Positions 3,769 through 35,275 of a stretch of DNA of 44,278 nucleotides are shown here, in pieces. Source of the DNA: a virus; the UHGV virus genome UHGV-0261880. One strand, 5' to 3'. Positions within the stretch are counted from its first letter, which is position 1. Every line of letters begins with the position of its first letter. The position numbers were made by a program, and so were the translations under genes. The notes beneath the pieces are model-generated. The model did not search any database and had not been told where the DNA came from. It was given only the letters and a program-made list of their open reading frames with translations.

Positions 3769-6095
3769 TACTTGAACCCCGGCGCGTTTCTTGTGGCCTT
3801 GCGGGCCTTGCTAATCTTGCTGTTGCTGTTCTGCAAAGATGCGGCAACTTGCTCCTCGATGATAATACGCAGACGGCCTTCATCATCTTGCTCAGTGGAT
3901 ACGTTGCCGATTTGAGAACTCGTGTTGTTTACGATAGTAACATTAGATGGCCCGGAAGAAGACCCGTTTTGCCCCATAATTTCTTTCATCTGCTGTGCGG
4001 TGCGAACACGCGACGCACCAGCTGGCATGATAACTTCTGGTTTACCACGTTCTGCGATGGTGGAAGCCTGCCCAGCGGACAACTGACCGCCCTGCTCACG
4101 CGCCGAGCGGATTTTGGCGATATTAGCCAGCCCCGCGGCAACGGCAGTAGCCGCGGCAACCGGCGCCAGGAATGGGCCGACAACAGGGATGGCAGCCGTT
4201 GACTTATATGCCTCGATAGCTGATGTGTACGTGGCGATAGTTGCCTGCGCAATAGCAAACGCTTTATACGCGGTGGACGCCTCGCCAAATGCGGTTTTGG
4301 CATTAGCCGCCATGTCTCCGAAGGCATCTCCGGTGGCTTTGGCGCGCTTCATTGAATACTGCTCATCCAGGGCTAGGAGCGCCATCTGGTACTGTTCGGC
4401 GTTAATTATGCCGTCTGCCATGTATTTTGAGATGATATTCGCTTTTTGGGACTGTTGTATTTCCAGAAGCTCAAGCTCAGTAGCGTTCTGGCCCATAATC
4501 TGCGCCATGAAGTCGTCGCCTTTCTGCTGCTTTTCCTGGGCTTCTTTTCTTTTCTTATCCAGTTCTTCCTGTCGGGCCTGCTCGGCGGTGAGCATAATCT
4601 GCGTTTTGGCGTTTTCGTACTGCTGCTGGCTTATAGTTCCAGCGCGGTTGAACTCTTCAAGTTTCGCCAGTTTCTGCTCTTCTGCCGCTGTAATACGTGA
4701 AATTTCGTCTCCAGTTGTGCGGTCGACAGTAGCGAGGAAATCTTCCGCCGCTTTTTTCTGACGTTGTGCCGCCGTTTCTTCGCGTTTGGCTTGTGCCGCC
4801 AGGCGTTTCTCGTTCGATTTAGCCTCTCGGTCTGCCTTCGCTTTTTCGGTCGCGTCGATGCGAGCGATGTCCTGCTGCGCTTCCGTATCACGGGCGGCGT
4901 TATACGCGGCTATCTGTTCTTTGGTGACAGCTTCACGTTTAGCAAACGCCTGCTTATCCAGTTCAGCTTGCGCCCGGATGCGCTCACGGTCGCTTAAGAT
5001 GGCGATTTGCTGATTCTTGACGATAGCTTCGTTCTGTTCCTGGAACCTCTGCGTGGTTGAGTTAACGTTACGGCCGAGATTCTTTTGGGCCTCCGCCGCC
5101 GCGTTTGCCGACTTCTCCGCGTTCTCCAGTGCCGTGGCGTTCTTGTTGGCGTTGTCCGTCAGGCGGATAAGTTCCGGGTTCAACTGTTTTGTGTTACCGA
5201 GCCAGTCGGTAAACACATCGGCGATGCGACGGGCATTCTCGGCGGTTGGCTCTTTGTTAAACGCGCTCTGCGCCGCTATCATCTCCAGCGCCTGGTCACG
5301 GTTAACCCCGAACTTACTGCTAAGCTCTGCGATATTCTGCGCCAGCATGTTGACGCCTACGATGTTACCCTCGTAAGTGCCGCCGAGTTTTTCTAATGTG
5401 TCGCCTACATCCGCACCCTTAGAGACCAGTGCATCGTACTGGCTGATCGCCGACGCCGTGGAGGCTTTCCACGTTTCCCACGATTCAGCATCTTCACGAA
5501 CAGCTTTAGCGGTTTGCTGCGCGATAAGGTCCGCGTTAGCCTTAGCCAGGGCGAGTTGCGTTTCCGCGGCTTCGCGGCTAATTTGCGTAAGTTGAATAAG
5601 ACCGTCTGTCAGTTCGAGGGAGCCAGATGCCGTTTGCTGGAAAGTATCCTTTAACTGTTTCTGCGCGGCTTCGAGGTCTTTTGAACTACCTTCTGCTTCG
5701 GTTAGCGATTTGTACAGGACCCCGCCAACAGCCGACGCAAGAGCAATTACAGCCCCAAGCACCGCACCACCGGGGCCGAAAGCACCCGCAAGCTGCGAAC
5801 CTTGTTGCCCGATTGCTACGAATGCAGACGTACCGGATTGCAACTGGACTACCATGTCCTGCACCTGGAAGCCAACCTGCCCGGCAGCGTTACGGAACTT
5901 GGCAAAACCGTCGGACGCTGCTTTAGAGGTAGCGGAGTTTACTTTATTAACATCAGGCGTTAGTTTGTTTACTGCGGTATCCGCACGGTCTGCAGACGAT
6001 GCCATAGCGTCAAGCTGTTTGGCAGCTACGTCGGCACCTTCTGTTTTTACTCTGGCAATTAGGGAAGCCGTATCAGCCATCTTCTCTGCCCTCAA
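3768..6095 (-). CDS. Tail tape measure protein
   Basis: 775 aa, long Ala/Gln/Glu/Lys-rich coiled-coil-like middle, hydrophobic Gly/Ala-rich segments, position after G/T chaperones. Confidence 0.85.
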   Translation of the reverse strand: MRAEKMADTASLIARVKTEGADVAAKQLDAMASSADRADTAVNKLTPDVNKVNSATSKAASDGFAKFRNAAGQVGFQVQDMVVQLQSGTSAFVAIGQQGSQLAGAFGPGGAVLGAVIALASAVGGVLYKSLTEAEGSSKDLEAAQKQLKDTFQQTASGSLELTDGLIQLTQISREAAETQLALAKANADLIAQQTAKAVREDAESWETWKASTASAISQYDALVSKGADVGDTLEKLGGTYEGNIVGVNMLAQNIAELSSKFGVNRDQALEMIAAQSAFNKEPTAENARRIADVFTDWLGNTKQLNPELIRLTDNANKNATALENAEKSANAAAEAQKNLGRNVNSTTQRFQEQNEAIVKNQQIAILSDRERIRAQAELDKQAFAKREAVTKEQIAAYNAARDTEAQQDIARIDATEKAKADREAKSNEKRLAAQAKREETAAQRQKKAAEDFLATVDRTTGDEISRITAAEEQKLAKLEEFNRAGTISQQQYENAKTQIMLTAEQARQEELDKKRKEAQEKQQKGDDFMAQIMGQNATELELLEIQQSQKANIISKYMADGIINAEQYQMALLALDEQYSMKRAKATGDAFGDMAANAKTAFGEASTAYKAFAIAQATIATYTSAIEAYKSTAAIPVVGPFLAPVAAATAVAAGLANIAKIRSAREQGGQLSAGQASTIAERGKPEVIMPAGASRVRTAQQMKEIMGQNGSSSGPSNVTIVNNTSSQIGNVSTEQDDEGRLRIIIEEQVAASLQNSNSKISKARKATRNAPGFK

Positions 6096-6958: not shown

Positions 6959-6987
6959 TTGCACACCCCAATATAATAGGGTACTAT
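6959..6987 (+). promoter_or_regulatory. Sigma70-like promoter TTGCAC-N17-TACTAT with embedded palindrome AATAG-ggta-CTATT
   Basis: TTGCACaccccaatataatagggTACTATtca about 30 nt upstream of the 7016 start; near-identical copies at 16871 (+), 29274 (-), 28141 (-). Confidence 0.5.
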
Positions 6988-7015
6988 TCACCCGTAACTT
7001 ATTGAGGAAATAATT

Positions 7016-7342
7016 ATGCGTAAATCAGTATTAGCTCTAGGGTTTATGTCTTTTTCTACCTTTGGGTCCCCGTGCGAACAGGTATTTAGTGAATCTGTTC
7101 TTATTACCTCTGGTGTACTTGAGAAAGCCGACCCTACTATTGTAAAGGCGTTTAAGGACTCTACTGTTCGCGAGTGTGAGGCTGCCGTAGAGGTTGGTAA
7201 ATCGGGCCTGCCTCCGCAAGCCGTAACATACTCTGTAATACGTTCGGTAGAGAAAAACGGAGACGCGTTTTACAGCCTACTGACAGCCACCCGTCTGCAA
7301 ATGGTAATGACTGGATGGGCAATAGGCGCAGAAAGTAAATAG
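7016..7342 (+). CDS. Small secreted/periplasmic protein (signal peptide), opposite-strand insertion in tail module
   Basis: 108 aa; N-terminus MRKSVLALGFMSFSTFGSPCEQ is a signal peptide; own promoter; encoded antisense to the surrounding tail genes. Confidence 0.6.
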   Translation: MRKSVLALGFMSFSTFGSPCEQVFSESVLITSGVLEKADPTIVKAFKDSTVRECEAAVEVGKSGLPPQAVTYSVIRSVEKNGDAFYSLLTATRLQMVMTGWAIGAESK

Positions 7343-7407
7343 TCGCCTTTATTTAAGGGAATTCACTGTGGTTAAATAGGACAAATCTTAAACACGAGGA
7401 AGTAAGC

Positions 7408-8538
7408 ATGGCCAGGAAGAAAATAACTGACGAACAGTTGCAGGAAGAATTGAACGCCGGGATGAAGAACGTAGACATCGCCCGTAAATACGGCATCTCA
7501 GACCGCGTTATTCGTATCCGTAAAGCGAAGCTGGCTAAAAAAGGCGTAGGTCACGGGCGTGACGTTAGTTACCTTGTGCCAGATGGCTACAAGATTAAAG
7601 GAACGTCGTCACTTGTGGATGAGTTCGGCAACACTAAGTTGCAATGGGTTAAGACAGACACCGACGCCGAACGTCAGGTCGAGTTGATGAACGCCGTAAT
7701 CGAAGGCATGAAGTCAGAGATTACCCCCGTTGCGCCTGTTAAAGCCGCCCGCGCTAAACGAGACGATAAACTACTCAATCTTTACACGGTATCTGATTTC
7801 CATCTCGGCATGCTGGCATGGGCCGACGAGAGCGGCGACGACTGGGACATGAAAATCGCGGAAGACCTGTTTTCTCGCTGGTTCGACGCGGCGTTTCAGA
7901 AAGCACCGGATGCAGGAACAGGGGTTATTAATCTGCTTGGCGACCTCGCTCACTTCGATAGCCTGGACGCCGTTACACCGGCAAGCGGTCATGTTCTTGA
8001 CGCAGACACGCGCTATCAGAAACTTGTCCGCTACATGATTCGCATGGTCCGCCGTGTTGTCGATATGGCGCTGGTTAAGCATAAAAATGTTCGCTTGCTT
8101 ATCGTACAAGGGAACCACGACGAGAGTGGCATGATTTGGTTGGCTGAGATGTTCAGTACGCTGTATGACAATGAGCCGCGTGTGTTCGTCGATACGTCGC
8201 CGGATGTTTACAAGATGGTCCAGCACGGCAAAACGACGCTGTTCTTTACGCACGGGCATAAATGCCGGTTTGAGGTGGTCGAACCCATTATGATAGCTAA
8301 GTTCAGAAAAGCATTTGGCGAAAGCGAGTACAGTTACGCACATGTCGGGCATCTCCACCATCAAAAGATTGTAGAAAGTAGGAATATGGTAGTGGAACAA
8401 CATCGCACTCTCGCGGCGAAAGATGCATATGCTTCCCGCGGTGGGTGGATGTCTGGCCGTAGTGCAAATGTAATTACTTATAGCGCCGAATATGGCGAAG
8501 TCGCACGTTTAACTATTTCACCGGAGATGCTGGGATGA
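7408..8538 (+). CDS. Calcineurin-like metallophosphoesterase with N-terminal HTH-like domain (SbcD/Mre11-like or phosphatase)
   Basis: 376 aa; motifs SDFHLG, GDLAHFD, GNHDE, HGH, GHLHH match the metallophosphoesterase signature; N-terminal ~50 aa DIARKYGISDRVIRIRK looks like HTH. Confidence 0.75.
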   Translation: MARKKITDEQLQEELNAGMKNVDIARKYGISDRVIRIRKAKLAKKGVGHGRDVSYLVPDGYKIKGTSSLVDEFGNTKLQWVKTDTDAERQVELMNAVIEGMKSEITPVAPVKAARAKRDDKLLNLYTVSDFHLGMLAWADESGDDWDMKIAEDLFSRWFDAAFQKAPDAGTGVINLLGDLAHFDSLDAVTPASGHVLDADTRYQKLVRYMIRMVRRVVDMALVKHKNVRLLIVQGNHDESGMIWLAEMFSTLYDNEPRVFVDTSPDVYKMVQHGKTTLFFTHGHKCRFEVVEPIMIAKFRKAFGESEYSYAHVGHLHHQKIVESRNMVVEQHRTLAAKDAYASRGGWMSGRSANVITYSAEYGEVARLTISPEMLG

Positions 8539-15271: not shown

Positions 15272-15973
15272 TTATTTCCTCAGGGCTTTAAGTTGCCGTT
15301 CAAATTCGGCAGGGTTCGATTTGTACAGAGCTAAACGCTCCGCTTCACTCATGTCTTTAAACGCTGGTGCGGCCCCGCCGCCTTTGCTACCGGAAGCCCC
15401 GCCGCCGGAAGCTGCATTTGCTTTAATCAAATGCGAAAACGCTTTGTGTTCGCGCAGGTATTTGCGGAACTGTTCCGGGTCAGTCGTGATCACGTTGCCG
15501 TCTGCGCCGACAAACTTAGTAACCACATCATCACCTTCGAACTCAGTCTTAACGAACGGTGCAAGGATGTCCACTGCTTCCGGAGTAATAAAGTCACCCG
15601 CGAAAGAGCCTAACACCGCTTTACGTTCGCTGCCGAGGATGCGCTCTGCCATCTTGGAGATGCGACCATCTTTCTCGGCTAACACCGGGTCATACTGGCT
15701 ACGAATCGTCTTTTCGAACTCGTCCATCTTACCAGCGGCTTTTAACGCCTCCTGGTGCGCGCGCTGCCGTTCTTCTTCAGCCTCTTTTGCTTTACGGGCG
15801 GCTTCTTTCTTCTCCGCCAGCAATGCTTCCTGATTAGCCTTAAGCCCGGCAACTTCTTTTTCAATCAGCGCCTGAACTTCTTCGGCAGTGAACATTTTAG
15901 GCGCATCTCCGCCACCGGATTTATCTTCTGCCCCAGCTTCTTCCTGGAACGGATAACGTAAAAAACGATTCAT
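15272..15973 (-). CDS. Scaffolding protein
   Basis: Track ORF 15272..16027 trimmed to ATG ~15973 (MNRFLRYPFQEE...) with GGGGA RBS; Ala/Glu/Lys-rich coiled coil; precedes major capsid gene. Confidence 0.6.
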   Translation of the reverse strand: MNRFLRYPFQEEAGAEDKSGGGDAPKMFTAEEVQALIEKEVAGLKANQEALLAEKKEAARKAKEAEEERQRAHQEALKAAGKMDEFEKTIRSQYDPVLAEKDGRISKMAERILGSERKAVLGSFAGDFITPEAVDILAPFVKTEFEGDDVVTKFVGADGNVITTDPEQFRKYLREHKAFSHLIKANAASGGGASGSKGGGAAPAFKDMSEAERLALYKSNPAEFERQLKALRK

Positions 15974-16055
15974 AGTCAGTATGTCCCCTGGACGTTGGAA
16001 CCCGGGCCGCCCGGATTTACATGTCAAGAATAAATTATTCCAACATGCAAGGCAA

Positions 16056-16319
16056 CTATTCCAGAATATTCCTCACGTAATCCTGCAACATGAACACTTT
16101 CAGCCTCAGTTGCCGTACACATTCGGCGTTCTGGACGTCGATAGCCAAATCCTCATCCGCGTCGCTACTTGGCGCTGCCAGTTTGCACGGCGGCTGCATC
16201 ATCGTCGTATCCGGGGATGGAATTGGCGTTGGTGACGGCGCGGGACTTGAGCTGCACGCGCTCAGGGTCAAAAGTGCACACGCTGCGACCAGGCGTTTTA
16301 ATGTACTTAACGACTTCAC
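16056..16319 (-). CDS. Outer-membrane spanin (Rz1-like lipoprotein), overlapped with i-spanin gene
   Basis: 87 aa; signal peptide with lipobox LTLSAC; Pro-rich segment PAPSPTPIPSPDTTMMQPP; starts inside and extends past the 16165..16551 gene in another frame. Confidence 0.55.
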   Translation of the reverse strand: MKSLSTLKRLVAACALLTLSACSSSPAPSPTPIPSPDTTMMQPPCKLAAPSSDADEDLAIDVQNAECVRQLRLKVFMLQDYVRNILE

Positions 16320-16551
16320 GGGTAATTACCTCTGATTTCGTCTTGCCTTCGTTGTCGGCGGCTGCGGCCTTTGATTCGTCCTGCTGCTGCCGTTGTGTTT
16401 TCTTCGCCAGCTCAGCCTGTGCTTTCTGCTGTTGCTGCGAAACGAGATTCGCCCGGCCTTCGTTCCAGCCGCTGCGATACTGATAAATGCCGTGGGCGTA
16501 GACCAGGATGATGAAACAAGCTCCCGCTACGACAGTTGCTTTAAGATTCAT
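16165..16551 (-). CDS. Inner-membrane spanin (Rz-like)
   Basis: 128 aa; N-terminal TM segment VVAGACFIILVYAHGIY followed by Gln/Ala/Lys-rich predicted coiled coil; overlapped by lipoprotein ORF. Confidence 0.5.
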   Translation of the reverse strand: MNLKATVVAGACFIILVYAHGIYQYRSGWNEGRANLVSQQQQKAQAELAKKTQRQQQDESKAAAADNEGKTKSEVITREVVKYIKTPGRSVCTFDPERVQLKSRAVTNANSIPGYDDDAAAVQTGSAK

Positions 16552-16802
16552 GTTTCCCCTTTCTCGATAAGTAAAGCCCCGCCTTAAAGCGGGGCGCTAG
16601 TCCTTATCATTTAAACATAAAAACAGCGTAATCTCAGTAAACCCGTTACTTTTTACACAAGCAATAGAGTATGGCCCTTCCGAACGCGTCAGCGTAACTA
16701 CACTCAGGACTTACGTCCCGCTCCGTTACCTGCCCGCGCCGCGGTCGCTTGTTCATACTTCACAAGCTCAGGTGGAGCTTAGCACATTTTCAGTGAAAAG
16801 TC

Positions 16803-16818
16803 AACTATTCGAATAGTT
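16803..16818. promoter_or_regulatory. Perfect 16-bp palindrome AACTATTCGAATAGTT
   Basis: Contains the same AATAG/CTATT half-sites as the promoter-associated element but in everted arrangement; lies ~55 nt upstream of the 16871 promoter. Confidence 0.4.
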
Positions 16819-16870
16819 TATTCCAACATTTACAATTCGATGGAATAACTGTAATACATAATCAAATAGT

Positions 16871-16899
16871 TTGCACACACCGATATAATAGGGTACTAT
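16871..16899 (+). promoter_or_regulatory. Sigma70-like promoter TTGCAC-N17-TACTAT with embedded palindrome
   Basis: TTGCACacaccgatataatagggTACTATtca, 30 of 32 nt identical to the 6959 element; ~30 nt upstream of the 16932 GTG start. Confidence 0.5.
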
Positions 16900-16931
16900 T
16901 CATTGCATCGAAACGAGAGGAGGGGTATAAA

Positions 16932-17246
16932 GTGAAAGATGAATTTAAAGGTACGAAAGGACCGTGGGAGTTCAAGAAAGAAAAAGGAGAGCAGGAATGG
17001 TTCGTGTTCCAGAAAGGCTCATTAAAGAAAATGTACGGCTGTACTATACGGACGCCAGTAGCCGAAGAAATTAATGATAAACATGACGCCGAACTTATTT
17101 CCTCGGCTCCGGAGTTACTTGAAGCTCTTCGCCAGCTTCGCGATTATGTTGAGGATGTTTGCGCGGTATCTTCTGATGATTGCCATGAAGACCATCCATT
17201 AAATCTAGCCAACAGAGCAATCAAGAAAGCATTAGGAAAGAAATAA
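16932..17246 (+). CDS. Hypothetical protein, opposite-strand insertion in head module
   Basis: 104 aa, GTG start with GAGGAGGGG RBS; own promoter and terminator; antisense to flanking head genes; ~42% GC. Confidence 0.6.
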   Translation: MKDEFKGTKGPWEFKKEKGEQEWFVFQKGSLKKMYGCTIRTPVAEEINDKHDAELISSAPELLEALRQLRDYVEDVCAVSSDDCHEDHPLNLANRAIKKALGKK

Positions 17247-17250
17247 AACT

Positions 17251-17275
17251 AAGGCCCCATAACGGGGCCTTTTAT
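17251..17275. terminator. Bidirectional terminator AAGGCCCC-ATAAC-GGGGCCTT
   Basis: 8-bp GC stem followed by TTTATC on plus and preceded by AAATAAAA (T-run on minus); between convergent genes. Confidence 0.55.
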
Positions 17276-17736
17276 CATTCTGGCTTCGTAACCTTCGCCG
17301 CTTTGCTTACTGCCTCTACACCACCGGCATCAGTAACTTTAACGAAATATTCACCAACTGCGTTAACCGTCAGAGACAAAGCCTCTTCCGGGGCGTTTAC
17401 TACTTCCTTACCGTCTTTGTACCAGGTCATCACATATGGCGATTTACCGGCTTTAACTTCGACAGTGATGGTGGCGCTGCCGTTCGCCAGTTCAGTTTCT
17501 TTTGGCTGCACAGAGAAATACACATCGCCAGCGTCCGCCAGATACGGAATCTCGTAAAGCATCCCAGCCGCGGGTAGTGCAATACCGGTTTTATCTGCAA
17601 ACGGCATATCGTCTACAGGTGTACCCAGTACGCTTTCATCTTCAATAAACACCACGTTCTCACCGGAGCCAGACACGCGGGCGTACTGGACAACACGGCG
17701 CGACGGCACATCAGTTACTTTGAAAAAGCCCATCAT
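17275..17736 (-). CDS. Ig-like (Big_2-type) domain protein, candidate head decoration/accessory structural protein
   Basis: 153 aa; C-terminal ATITVEVKAGKSPYVMTWYKDGKEV...GEYFVKVTDAGG is Ig-like. Confidence 0.5.
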   Translation of the reverse strand: MMGFFKVTDVPSRRVVQYARVSGSGENVVFIEDESVLGTPVDDMPFADKTGIALPAAGMLYEIPYLADAGDVYFSVQPKETELANGSATITVEVKAGKSPYVMTWYKDGKEVVNAPEEALSLTVNAVGEYFVKVTDAGGVEAVSKAAKVTKPE

Positions 17737-18812
17737 TATTCCCCTTTCAGATAGTCAGCGACACGTTTATCGAGTTCCGCCATCTGCTTAAGCGTGAGCG
17801 GATTCCCGAAACCATCTACAGATATTACGCGAAACTCTTCCGGTGATATACCGCTGTTGCGGAAAATCTTACCCCGCACCGGGCCGAGAGCCTGGTCCTG
17901 AAACCATGCCGGTTGTTGTTTCAGGAACTCGTAGTACGTGGTGTCTGCGCTTACCTGAGTACCACCATCTGCGCCTTTAGCAGCACGTTTTGCGCCTTTA
18001 TCCAGGAAGTCGAACTCCGAGCTAATTACCGGCGCAGTGGTGCTTCTGCACCCAAAATGGGCGGGGGGCATTGGCCCTTTACCTATTTCCCACGTCATCC
18101 CGTCTCTGGCCCTGCAAATCGTACTGGTACGGCTGTCCAGCGTTGACACCCACTCGTATTTCTCTATGATATCGTCGTTCTGGCGGTACGTCTCGTTGCG
18201 TGCTTCGTTGGACACATGGGACAACGCAGTGCGGATTACGGTAGCTGCGTTTCGTTCTGAGATATCCGCCAGCCCACCAGCGCCCACGACATTCTTAACA
18301 ATCTGCCGTGTGGTTTGGCCTTGTACAAAGCCCATCTTAACGCCGGTTACCAGGCGCGCGACCTCCGCTTCGCCCCAACCTGACATCAGTTTAGCGAAGT
18401 CAACCGGCTTGTAACTTAACGATAATGGCTGAAACTCAGCAGCGGCCCACACCTGCTCGGCGGTAGGTGTAACAAATTCCGCGTTAACGTTAGCCGTCAG
18501 TGTCTTAGCATTCCACTCAGCCTCATATGCAGCCAGTTCTTTAAGGTCTTCTGTCAGTTTTGTTTGCCAGTCACCTGTAAGTCCGGTCAGTGCTTCTTCG
18601 AGGTCGCGTAACAGTTTATTCAGTCGCCGTGTGGAGCGACCGTCGTCGCCGAATAGCAACACCTGCCGTTTGATTTCATCCCGCATTTCCTGAATGAACG
18701 GTGCAAGGTCTTTCACTTCTCCGGAAGCGGTTCGTTGCAGCCATATCTGGTGGCTGATTAGAGATGTAAGTAAGCTCATAGATACACCCTGTGGCGCTAA
18801 AGTTAATAGCAT
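17736..18812 (-). CDS. Head morphogenesis protein (Mu F / SPP1 gp7-like minor head protein)
   Basis: 358 aa directly after portal; size and position typical of this family. Confidence 0.65.
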   Translation of the reverse strand: MLLTLAPQGVSMSLLTSLISHQIWLQRTASGEVKDLAPFIQEMRDEIKRQVLLFGDDGRSTRRLNKLLRDLEEALTGLTGDWQTKLTEDLKELAAYEAEWNAKTLTANVNAEFVTPTAEQVWAAAEFQPLSLSYKPVDFAKLMSGWGEAEVARLVTGVKMGFVQGQTTRQIVKNVVGAGGLADISERNAATVIRTALSHVSNEARNETYRQNDDIIEKYEWVSTLDSRTSTICRARDGMTWEIGKGPMPPAHFGCRSTTAPVISSEFDFLDKGAKRAAKGADGGTQVSADTTYYEFLKQQPAWFQDQALGPVRGKIFRNSGISPEEFRVISVDGFGNPLTLKQMAELDKRVADYLKGE

Positions 18813-18848
18813 ACTATAAGAAAGCCCCTTTCGGGGCTATATGTGAAC

Positions 18849-20348
18849 TTACTGCTTAGCGGTGTCTTGTTGCTTAGCGGTGTCTTGTTGCTGCGCCGAC
18901 TGCGGAATTTCTCCGGATACTTGGGTAACAGCACCCAACGGCAGAGGTGCGTCCTCAATAGCGTTCTGAATGTCCTCGTCCGTCCAGTCAGTTACACCTG
19001 CCTTGCGCAACGCAGCATAATAAGCGGTAGCCGGTAACAGGCCCGCGTTAATATCCGCCATCCACTGAGTACGGTCCTGAGCGGTCATCGGTTGCAGGAA
19101 GAACTCCATATTCAGCTTGAACTCAATCTCGGTGCCTTCACGCAATCCAAGCATCGCAGCTACCCAGCGCAACGCATCGGTATACGCCATACTTACGTTA
19201 CGTGCGATTGTTGCCATGACGGACGTATCGGCGCCGCGTTGCAGACGGGCCGATTCAGCGGTGATTTGCTGCGTCGGGGTGATAAGCTGTGCGCCAATCT
19301 GGACAGCCTGATTTTCTTTATCCAGCATGTTCTGCTTAGCGAGGTTGTTCTCCCCAGCCTGAACCAGAAACGCATTGCCGCCGTAGCCGATGTTATGGCC
19401 TGAGCGCGACCCCATGCGCACGCCGTGGGGATTGGCTTCTTTCCACTGCTCCATGCTCATGTTCTCGCCAGGGGCGATGAACAGAGTGGGCTGGCCCACA
19501 ACGAAGCTTGATTCCTCATTGTCCGCGCTGTTGCGGAAATGTCCGATATTAAGTTCAGCCAACGGCAACAAAGGGGCATCGTCGATGGTTGCGTCGTTGT
19601 TGCTCGCTCCAATGAACGTGAAGGGGATTTTGCCGCGTAACTGTTCGCCAAGTTCCGGGAAGATTTCGATTACTTCACCCTGTGCACCACCTTCTGCATC
19701 GAAGCGATAGATTCGCTGGCGGTAGTGACCGTCAATAAGGTCAAGGACGCGGTATTGCTCACCGAACTTTGTCTCAAATTCCGCGCCGGGTTCTGAGTAT
19801 TCCCATACTTCTCGCAACACAACCATTGTCACACGGTTAACTGAACCTACGCGAGTCAGTCGCCAGTTGATGATGTTCTCTGCGGTATAGAATGCGATGA
19901 CCGGGTTTAATAATCCCGCATTCTGTTCTGCCGCCGTCGCCGCGGCTGTCTCCGGGGCGTCCACCAGCAACCCGCCACGGCCTACTGAGTCAATCTCCAT
20001 CAGCGTATCCTGCGCGTGCTGCCACAGCCCGACACCAGAACCGTCGGCGTTACGTAATAGGTACTCAAGCTCAGGCGGGATAATCTGCTCGGGGTCTTTG
20101 CGCATCACGGACCCGACCATCCCCACCAGCGTTCTCTTGGTGAAGTTGTAGCAGATAGCGCCGTTCTCGTATTCTTCCTGGCGCTGTGCTGCATATTTAG
20201 GGTCCGGCTCGTTCTTCCCGACGTTGCGCAGATAGCGAATAAGGTCGCCTTCCAGCGCGTGGCGTACCTTCTGCCATTTATCGAAGTGATGCAGCCATTC
20301 CCGGTGTTTTGTCTTAACACCCTGATTCTGACCGTTCATAGTTAACAT
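18849..20348 (-). CDS. Portal protein
   Basis: 499 aa immediately downstream of large terminase; size and position. Confidence 0.85.
   Translation of the reverse strand: MLTMNGQNQGVKTKHREWLHHFDKWQKVRHALEGDLIRYLRNVGKNEPDPKYAAQRQEEYENGAICYNFTKRTLVGMVGSVMRKDPEQIIPPELEYLLRNADGSGVGLWQHAQDTLMEIDSVGRGGLLVDAPETAAATAAEQNAGLLNPVIAFYTAENIINWRLTRVGSVNRVTMVVLREVWEYSEPGAEFETKFGEQYRVLDLIDGHYRQRIYRFDAEGGAQGEVIEIFPELGEQLRGKIPFTFIGASNNDATIDDAPLLPLAELNIGHFRNSADNEESSFVVGQPTLFIAPGENMSMEQWKEANPHGVRMGSRSGHNIGYGGNAFLVQAGENNLAKQNMLDKENQAVQIGAQLITPTQQITAESARLQRGADTSVMATIARNVSMAYTDALRWVAAMLGLREGTEIEFKLNMEFFLQPMTAQDRTQWMADINAGLLPATAYYAALRKAGVTDWTDEDIQNAIEDAPLPLGAVTQVSGEIPQSAQQQDTAKQQDTAKQ
18853..18888. repeat. Perfect tandem duplication of an 18-bp unit (TGCTTAGCGGTGTCTTGT x2) at the 3' end of the portal gene
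   Basis: Encodes duplicated C-terminal peptide ...QQDTAKQQDTAKQ of the portal protein. Confidence 0.8.
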
Positions 20349-28081: not shown

Positions 28082-28112
28082 CTTCCTTCTCTCCTCTCGT
28101 TTGTGTAAATGA

Positions 28113-29245: not shown

Positions 29246-29274
29246 ATAGTATCCTATTATATTGGGGTGTGCAA
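29246..29274 (-). promoter_or_regulatory. Sigma70-like promoter TTGCAC-N17-TACTAT with embedded palindrome (minus strand), leftward early promoter
   Basis: Minus-strand reading TTGCACaccccaatataataggaTACTATtca, 31 of 32 nt identical to the 6959 plus-strand copy. Confidence 0.5.
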
Positions 29275-32696: not shown

Positions 32697-32712
32697 TGAA
32701 TAGTACCATATT
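32697..32712 (-). promoter_or_regulatory. Operator-like palindrome copy overlapping the -10 (TACTAT) of the predicted XRE promoter
   Basis: TGAATAGTACCATATT on plus = ...TACTATTCA on minus, ~20 nt upstream of the XRE RBS; weak -35. Confidence 0.4.
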
Positions 32713-32732
32713 AATTATTTTAGAAAAGCCCA

Positions 32733-32761
32733 TTGACAAGTGAATAGTTGGCTATTATAGT
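32733..32761 (+). promoter_or_regulatory. Sigma70-like promoter TTGACA-N17-TATAGT with embedded palindrome AATAG-ttgg-CTATT
   Basis: Consensus -35, 17-bp spacer; 32 nt upstream of the 32793 start. Confidence 0.55.
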
Positions 32762-35246: not shown

Positions 35247-35275
35247 TTGACACCTGAATAGTTAGCTATTATAGT
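35247..35275 (+). promoter_or_regulatory. Sigma70-like promoter TTGACA-N17-TATAGT with embedded palindrome AATAG-ttag-CTATT
   Basis: Near-identical to the 32733 promoter; ~55 nt upstream of the 35331 start. Confidence 0.55.

Follow-up and report, generated by a model that had tools for sequence, protein, structure and literature searches.

How does a plus-strand gene come to lie within the minus-strand head operon of a siphovirus, and what might it do there? The question is raised by UHGV virus genome UHGV-0261880, a stretch of 44,278 nucleotides that is called the window below; it is the genome of a Kagunavirus (Guernseyvirinae), a siphovirus of ~44 kb. A reading made from the letters of this DNA, without database searches (the sequence-only reading), had described a plus-strand unit lying antisense between a gene for an immunoglobulin (Ig)-like head protein and the spanin genes, both on the minus strand. 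The unit was said to comprise a perfect palindrome, a promoter, a 104-amino-acid (aa) open reading frame (ORF) with a strong ribosome-binding site and a GTG start, and a bidirectional terminator. We found the palindrome, the promoter hexamers, the ribosome-binding site with its GTG, the ORF, and the terminator where they had been placed, and PHROG matches to Hoc-like and Rz/Rz1 proteins bear out the setting. Morons, a concept introduced for lambdoid phages by Juhala and Hendrix, are extra genes with their own promoter and terminator inside a late structural operon. We conclude, with a probability of roughly 0.6, that the unit is a moron-type accessory cassette placed antisense between the Hoc-like and spanin genes of the Kagunavirus head operon. 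That it is a dispensable accessory cassette expressed early is, taken by itself, very probable.

The cassette is an insert in a slot that is empty in many relatives

The region around the cassette matches 193 phage records at 80 to 99% identity, nearly all of them Escherichia, Salmonella, or Kagunavirus phages of the Guernseyvirinae. Our comparison set consisted of 48 viral-contig loci fetched via the Rz protein and three GenBank loci (51 altogether), in which we measured the gap between the Hoc-like gene and Rz; 50 related loci had both flanking genes. The slot was empty in 19 of these 50 (10 Jersey-like and 9 Kagunavirus loci), with a gap of 317 to 343 bp, compared to 507 to 1131 bp in occupied loci and 723 bp in the window. 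Up to window position 16856, the backbone is common to all aligned loci; the empty sites then continue with a hairpin and the Hoc stop codon. The Kagunavirus PDP21P8 aligns to window positions 15499 to 16856 and then passes straight to 17277 to 18780, which fixes the insert at 16857 to 17275. Thus, as in morons, presence and absence alternate at one position, here with boundaries at 16856/16857 and 17275/17277. The existence of the cassette, these boundaries, and its insertion in a slot that is empty in many relatives are direct observations. The insert also stands out in base composition, as the sequence-only reading had noted: the guanine-plus-cytosine (GC) content is 42.0% in the cassette and 42.5% in its ORF, compared to 50.8% in the window and 50.6 to 55.6% in the neighboring genes.

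Occupied sites follow a single order, consisting of a conserved promoter block of ~50 bp, one of two types of 5' untranslated region (UTR), a variable ORF, and a conserved hairpin (..ATAAAACTAAGGCCCC-N4/5-GGGGCCTTTT). This frame holds at least 11 cargo types other than that of the window, two of them DNA methyltransferases. Among the cargos are methyltransferases of the D12/Dam type (phage EM1) and of the N6_N4 type (PF01555, E = 6e-30), a 179-aa endonuclease VII/HNH-like protein, a 173-aa sliding-clamp-like protein (phrog_3007, phrog_947), a 33-aa ORF together with a 114-aa lipoprotein, and small proteins of 57, 67, 70, 81, and 83 aa. The PF27050 family, to which the window cargo is assigned below, occupies the slot in the window and at loci L018, L021, and L029. 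Both UTR types combine freely with the cargos, and the flanks are ~95% and ~90% identical to those of the window irrespective of the cargo. The clamp-like protein, which contains the string TDGHRLF, is found in this slot at loci L039, L009, L010, L023, L034, L022, L025, and L026.

The cargo is framed by a recurrent promoter motif and a bidirectional hairpin

Near its left end, the cassette contains a 31-nt motif (TTGCACAC..ATAATAGGnTACTATTC) that occurs in the window at 6959-6989 (+), 16871-16901 (+), 28141-28111 (-), and 29274-29244 (-), and the full pattern TTGCA-N18-TACTAT has the same four copies (6959, 16871, 28141(-), and 29274(-)). When up to three mismatches are allowed, the 17-nt core of the motif matches seven times in the window, whereas 0.07 matches are expected. 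In the locus alignment, the motif is kept in every cargo-bearing locus, whatever the cargo. The TTGCAC-N17-TACTAT promoter proposed from the letters alone is therefore present as a motif, recurs four times, and travels with every cargo; its standing as a promoter is weighed in the Discussion. A perfect TATAAT inside the motif, at 16884-16889, is a second candidate -10 element, so that the predicted transcription start is ambiguous by ~10 nt (near 16896 or near 16906). The copies elsewhere in the window head non-structural operons of the phage: they precede an operon for an exonuclease, a polynucleotide kinase, a deoxynucleoside monophosphate kinase, and an HNH endonuclease, as well as strings of small ORFs at the start of a long minus-strand unit. 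As the annotation of the relative EM1 lists no RNA polymerase gene, we infer that the promoter copies would be read by the host RNA polymerase, early in infection. Weaker copies of the core, with two to three mismatches, lie at 32698-32758 and 35256-35272 (-).

Downstream of the motif, AGGAGG stands 8 nt upstream of the GTG at 16932, and homologs that start with ATG share the N terminus of the GTG-started ORF. The UTR type of the cassette (..CATCGAAACGAGGAGG..) also follows the promoter copies at 28110 and 29243, and the cassette 5' UTR (..CGAAACGAGAGGAGG..) is similar to the UTRs of these two copies; in other phages, these cargos are also accompanied by the second type (..GTTAACTTAAACAGGAG..). 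At the far end, the terminator scores on both strands, as had been claimed. It is a predicted GC-rich hairpin with a T-run (-15.4 and -17.7 kcal/mol), which gives the cassette a terminator of its own, as in morons, and the hairpin type moves with the cassette to the second slot described below. The cassette-type hairpin (TAAGGCCCC..GGGGCCTTT) accompanies the examined Kagunavirus cassettes in both slots. Empty Kagunavirus sites have a different hairpin, AAAGCCCCTTTCGGGGCT, and the hairpin of empty Jersey-like sites resembles the cassette type.

The same frame is reused at other slots

A second slot lies at the junction of the head-morphogenesis and portal genes. It is empty in the window, where its hairpin is of the type found in empty Kagunavirus Hoc-Rz sites. 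At loci L055, L009, L010, L034, L022, L050, L030, and L012, it is filled according to the same design: the promoter (TTGCAGACACCAATATAATAGGGTACTAT) and the UTR are those of the first slot, a variable ORF follows, and the hairpin is of the cassette type; the cargos measure 59 to 173 aa or consist of three ORFs. In PDP21P8 (L055), this slot (L055:2890-3330) carries a member of the PF27050 family, and the last 182 nt of the unit, including the terminator, are 92% identical to the window. At L030, it carries the clamp-like gene found in the first slot of other phages. Replacement in both slots starts just past the promoter or the UTR and ends at the hairpin. A KilA-N-domain gene (~190 to 220 aa), which lacks the promoter pattern scanned for, occupies the second junction in L032, L036, and Jersey-like phages. 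Nearby, at 18853-18888, the 3' end of the portal gene contains an 18-nt tandem duplication in the window (cttagcggtgtcttgttg twice), which repeats QQDTAK at the C terminus of the protein; L004 and L055 have a single copy.

The promoter copy at 6959 is followed by a third swappable first gene. Its 108-aa product in the window has a signal-peptide-like N terminus and matches phrog_14165, and phage EM1 has a 64-aa superinfection-immunity gene at this place, with flanks conserved on both sides. Promoter and stem-loop motifs are thus repeated (6959, 16871, 28141, and 29274) around unrelated ORFs at the points of replacement. The occurrence of the same cargo in different slots and with different UTR types suggests that exchange proceeds through recombination at the motifs. 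Taken together, the empty sites that define the insert, the varied cargos in one frame, and the second slot uphold the self-contained promoter-gene-terminator architecture that had been proposed.

The cargo is a conserved gene of the P22 orf78 family

The ORF is a real coding gene under purifying selection. It is 84% identical in nucleotides and 89% identical in protein, over its full length, to gp32 of Sf11 (a Cedarrivervirus, from an unrelated genus), where it lacks the cassette flanks. Third codon positions account for 36 of the 50 differences, and 30 codon differences are synonymous versus 13 non-synonymous. In one variant, the C-terminal module of the protein is 96% identical, with third positions only 57% identical. 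The encoded protein (11.9 kDa, isoelectric point [pI] 5.9) is hydrophilic and has no membrane segment, which suggests that it is soluble and cytoplasmic.

The protein had been described as free of recognizable features, a description that no longer holds: by profile evidence, it is a member of PF27050 (Phage_P22_Y8K6) and phrog_1273, as is orf78 of phage P22. It matches phrog_1273, a group of unknown function, at E = 4e-23; the 99% identical protein P0001 and nearly all of the 120 homologs listed carry a precomputed PF27050 hit; and a profile built from 147 family members finds P22 orf78 at E = 2e-11. A profile search of the full library returned 49,042 representative clusters (50% identity) at E <= 0.001 and 811 at E <= 1e-10. 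Nearly all hits are standalone proteins of ~90 to 120 aa, from phages of many phyla.

Three pieces of the sequence are conserved in the family: an N terminus of the form M-x-x-FKGTxGPW, a helix (A)NAxLIAAAPELLEAL (in shorter form LIxxAPELLEAL), and a C terminus AxxAIxKALG. The 35 to 55 residues between the N-terminal motif and the helix are highly variable, as is the stretch between the helix and the C-terminal motif. The ORF is correspondingly mosaic: what phage Skate has in common with the window ORF is limited to the first 39 and the last 141 nt, which are 88% identical. Like P22 orf78, the window cargo is a small, standalone protein of ~100 aa from a family found in early operons; the annotated P22 orf78 (78 aa), however, is without the N-terminal FKGTxGPW segment. 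In addition, the window subfamily has a motif C-x6-CH-x2-H (C77, C84, H85, and H88) that is not conserved in the wider PF27050 family, and these residues could possibly bind a metal.

An AlphaFold model computed from a deep alignment was confident (predicted local distance difference test [pLDDT] score of 86, predicted template modeling [pTM] score of 0.71) and shows five short β-strands followed by three helices. A fold search of the PDB with this model found no known fold and no relative of solved structure. Remote homology searches and structure prediction, which the sequence-only reading had put forward as checks, thus gave a family and a confident model but no known fold. PDB sequence searches with the single protein and with the profile yielded noise, with best E values of 0.19 (Apyc1) and 0.34. 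The protein had no match in NCBIfam, in PADLOC, or in our local copy of Pfam, which lacks the PF27050 model, and a Pfam scan of the 147 family members produced scattered chance hits only. There is no second PF27050-family copy in the window. Nothing relevant emerged from literature searches on PF27050, phrog_1273, the sequence motifs, promoters of Kagunavirus, morons of the Guernseyvirinae, and P22 orf78.

Two identities were considered and rejected. The family is not Ead/Ea22-like (PF13935), as its profile scores 0.3 bits against lambda Ea22; the only hint of Ea22 was a weak BFVD fold match (E = 0.43), and at L063 PF13935 marks another gene in the operon of the PF27050 member. Nor does the protein look like a DNA mimic, being only mildly acidic (the family median pI is 5.0).

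Family members elsewhere lie in early operons

In phage P22, orf78 belongs to the early-left operon, where it has ral on one side and orf87/gene 17 on the other. Phages mEp213 and Dewey and several prophages have their family member in the interval from N to kil, gam, erf, or recT. A Klebsiella oxytoca prophage (L062) has two PF27050 paralogs (5001-5297 and 7578-7877) in one early-left operon. In Skate, Sf11, and ZCKp20p, the PF27050 gene is the first of an operon and is followed by a ParB/KorB-like DNA-binding protein, two small ORFs, and a β-clamp-like protein; the clamp-like genes of these short operons lie at L058:3437-3973, L053:4000-4536, and L057:3741-4277. That a clamp-like gene is both a cargo of the Kagunavirus slots and an operon partner of PF27050 hints at a functional link. 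Because of these contexts in P22, in lambdoid prophages, and in Skate, Sf11, and ZCKp20p, the family appears to be consistently early and non-structural, and it is often associated with accessory neighborhoods that contain known counter-defense genes.

A conserved backbone element borders the cassette

The features of the locus are collected in Table 1. Both flanks match PHROGs (for the spanin pair, phrog_2536 at E = 4e-57 and phrog_5672 at E = 3e-30); the Ig_3 match of the Hoc-like protein is weak and falls under the Pfam gathering score.

Table 1. Features of the cassette, its surroundings, and the further slots in the window
Feature	Position	Strand	Remarks
Whole cassette	16857..17275	+	Promoter, 5' UTR, ORF, and terminator; insert relative to empty-site relatives
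Conserved 31-nt promoter motif (predicted)	16871..16901	+	-35-like TTGCAC 16871-16876; 17-nt spacer; -10-like TACTAT 16894-16899
5' UTR with Shine-Dalgarno AGGAGG (16918-16923)	16902..16931	+	Read from sequence
ORF, GTG start, 104 aa	16932..17246	+	Member of PF27050 (Phage_P22_Y8K6)/phrog_1273 by profile evidence
Bidirectional intrinsic terminator AAGGCCCC-N5-GGGGCCTT	17251..17271	both	Predicted; T-run overlaps the stop codon of the Hoc-like gene
Hoc-like Ig-domain head decoration gene, right flank	17275..17736	-	phrog_3945, E = 2e-84
Rz-like i-spanin gene, left flank	16165..16551	-	phrog_2536/phrog_5672 matches for the spanin pair
Rz1-like o-spanin gene, embedded with Rz	16056-16319	-	Spanin pair matches
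Perfect 16-bp palindrome AACTATTCGAATAGTT	16803..16818		Backbone; overlaps the -35 of the candidate leftward promoter
Conserved backbone intergenic region, 305 bp	16552..16856	-	Candidate leftward promoter, structured leader, terminator; sets the left border of the cassette
Second slot, head-morphogenesis/portal junction	18780..18848		Empty in the window; hairpin AAAGCCCCTTTCGGGGCT alone (18822-18839)
Promoter copy (6959-6989) and third swappable first gene	6959..7375	+	ORF 7016-7342, 108 aa

The conserved intergenic region lies directly upstream of the Rz/Rz1, scaffold, and major capsid genes. Its candidate leftward promoter reads TTGACT (16804-16799), a 17-nt spacer, and TGnTAAGCT (hexamer 16781-16776), in which TG is kept and n varies; the Jersey-like counterpart is TAGACT-17-TGTTACGCT. 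Next comes a ~195-nt leader that ends at a strong predicted hairpin terminator (16593-16574, -17.2 kcal/mol), with the Rz start ~20 nt further on. The leader includes a long three-helix hairpin (~16744-16678) in which an alignment of Kagunavirus and Jersey-like phages reveals compensatory changes: the paired fraction of cells is 93.5%, compared to 26 to 43% in slid controls, both partners have changed in eight pairs, and the covariation score reaches 0.161, versus 0.070 in shuffles. G-U pairs favor the minus strand, for which the minimum free energy is -73.5 kcal/mol (z = -2.8) versus -52.6 kcal/mol for the plus strand. An Rfam scan of 16000-17800 with E values up to 1 found no match. We do not regard a 36-aa minus-strand ORF at 16646-16756, annotated in fBC-Eco01, as a gene, since Jersey-like phages have a deletion of the 11 nt that include its ATG, and the variable positions there show paired compensatory changes. 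As a lead, the layout recalls the late promoter of lambda and P22 (pR'-tR'), with a short terminated leader RNA and lysis genes under antitermination; we identified no Q-like gene.

The palindrome, which the sequence-only reading had counted as part of the unit, is present but belongs to this shared backbone. It is kept in nearly all aligned Kagunavirus relatives, those with an empty slot included, and we therefore excluded it from the cassette. Taken alone, it is also not beyond chance, because a palindrome of at least 16 bp turns up in 45% of shuffled versions of the window. Its half-site, the octamer AACTATTC, is carried by two of the weaker core copies mentioned above and is found a short way upstream of the -35 in the promoter copy at 29274 as well. 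The interval between the palindrome and the insert (16819-16856), which adjoins the left junction of the cassette and lies upstream of the two divergent promoters, contains an inverted repeat, TTATTCCA-N15-TGGAATAA, with CTGTAATA after it (relatives have CTGGAATA). Kagunavirus and Jersey-like phages both keep the repeat; some changes at its inner position are paired, and it may be a protein-binding site. A near-palindrome, AAGCTC-CACCT-GAGCTT, overlaps the candidate leftward -10 region at 16776-16792, and Jersey-like phages have a different inverted repeat (ACGCT..AGCGT) in the equivalent place.

Discussion

The cassette resembles lambdoid morons in being a single extra gene that is patchy among relatives and deviates in base composition. 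It differs from them in three respects. Its phage is apparently virulent, so that expression from a repressed prophage does not apply; its promoter is not idiosyncratic but repeats the 31-nt motif that recurs in the genome of the phage; and one frame is reused at two or three slots in Kagunavirus. A second comparison is with the promoter-early stem-loop (PeSL) cassettes of T4-type phages, in which repeated promoter/stem-loop motifs surround unrelated variable ORFs and have been proposed as points of homologous exchange (PMC2839356, PMC4122927). The Kagunavirus promoter and hairpin motifs are likewise short, conserved, repeated in the genome, and placed at the borders of unrelated ORFs. Unlike PeSL cassettes, however, they belong to a siphovirus of ~44 kb rather than a T4-type myovirus, they form single-gene slots within and antisense to a head operon rather than arrays in hyperplastic regions, and each cassette has its promoter at the 5' end and its terminator at the 3' end, with no composite terminator/promoter junction. 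The putative exchange in Kagunavirus is read from sequence comparison.

A working model can be outlined. The host sigma-70 RNA polymerase would fire the cassette promoter soon after infection and produce a monocistronic mRNA of ~370 to 380 nt that ends at the bidirectional hairpin, which would also insulate the cassette from the converging late Hoc transcript. From the strong ribosome-binding site and the GTG start, this mRNA would yield the 11.9-kDa P22 orf78-family protein, presumably soluble in the cytoplasm. The promoter and terminator repeats would serve as portable homology through which co-infecting phages recombine, swapping cargo and moving cassettes among at least two or three slots. 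In the protein, the conserved scaffold (FKGTxGPW, LIxxAPELLEAL, and AIxKALG) may carry the highly variable β-sheet module as the part that specifies the target. Tentatively, we propose that the protein is an early, dispensable factor whose binding partner is a host or defense component and that it thereby acts in counter-defense or host takeover.

The anti-defense or host-modulating role suggested by the sequence-only reading is thus matched by context. Dam-type and N6/N4 methyltransferases, which are anti-restriction cargo, use the same slot, and the neighbors of P22 orf78 include ral and gene 17, one on either side. The protein itself, in contrast to orphan methyltransferases and Ral, is tied to such functions by position, with no similarity in sequence or fold. 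Several points weigh against our reading. Neither sequence nor fold similarity to characterized anti-defense proteins (Ocr, ArdA, Ral, Gam, nucleotide sponges, and others) was found in PADLOC, NCBIfam, or PDB sequence and fold searches. The predicted promoter matches 7 of 12 consensus positions, which is why a generic sigma-70 scan does not flag it. The early timing is drawn solely from the genes that the other promoter copies precede, and two of those copies head a long minus-strand unit that includes late genes too. The variable middle of the protein could simply be under weak constraint rather than form a recognition module, and the breadth of the family (many phyla) could equally fit a function internal to the phage.

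The last point leads to the rival that survives best, although we consider it unlikely: the protein might serve the phage's own DNA replication, partition, or early regulation as an accessory factor that works with ParB-like and sliding-clamp-like proteins. The operon of Skate, Sf11, and ZCKp20p, led by a family member, and the 173-aa clamp-like gene that serves as alternative cargo of the same Kagunavirus slots speak for such a partnership, and the very broad distribution of the family suits a target common to all phages or hosts. Yet the gene is dispensable, given the 19 empty loci; in the window, it is a single family copy with no ParB-like partner adjoining, and the copies in lambdoid prophages sit in the accessory part of the pL operon rather than in the replication module.

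A role in competition between phages, by superinfection exclusion or by interference with co-infecting or resident phages, seems less likely still. The company that the cassette keeps is suggestive, since a lipoprotein is among the alternative cargos, the promoter copy at 6959 precedes the signal-peptide protein in the window and the superinfection-immunity gene in EM1, and P22 orf78 lies near sieB/esc and gene 17. The protein, however, has neither a membrane segment nor a signal peptide, unlike classical exclusion proteins. Moreover, Kagunaviruses appear to be virulent (no integrase is annotated in EM1), which leaves no room for long-term exclusion from a prophage.

Very improbable, in our judgment, is a neutral or selfish passenger kept only through easy transfer via the promoter and terminator repeats. 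Such a passenger would account for a distribution that is patchy and independent of the backbone, for a design that favors exchange, and for the endonuclease-like nature of some cargos, but it is at odds with clear purifying selection on the protein, with the retention of the gene in Sf11, with the size and conservation of the family, and with the absence of any nuclease or recombinase motif. That the protein is a virion or head-assembly component is the least probable reading of all, as nothing beyond its position between head genes speaks for it, whereas it lies on the opposite strand with its own predicted promoter and terminator, is missing from close relatives with the same head genes, has homologs elsewhere in early operons, and shows, in PHROG and Pfam, none of the homology to structural proteins that the sequence-only reading had named as evidence against its view.

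The moron-type accessory cassette therefore remains our preferred reading. Its cargo family is already catalogued, though uncharacterized, and the cassette fits the moron and PeSL patterns. We found no description of such a cassette system for the Guernseyvirinae in the searchable literature. A bolder proposal, which we regard as doubtful, is that the Guernseyvirinae maintain a "plug-and-play" platform in which the 31-nt promoter and the hairpin frame interchangeable genes at three or more docking sites, without a dedicated recombinase, and that PF27050, which ranks with the most widespread uncharacterized families of early phage proteins, is a new class of counter-defense protein with a three-piece scaffold and a hypervariable, recombining β-sheet module.

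Near-isogenic phages with flanks that are 90 to 95% identical carry different cargos in one expression frame and form a natural test bench; because they share that frame, the functions of the cargos can be compared through simple swaps. Short repeated regulatory motifs of the PeSL kind may also drive the shuffling of accessory genes in small siphoviruses, and a role for PF27050 would annotate tens of thousands of phage genes.

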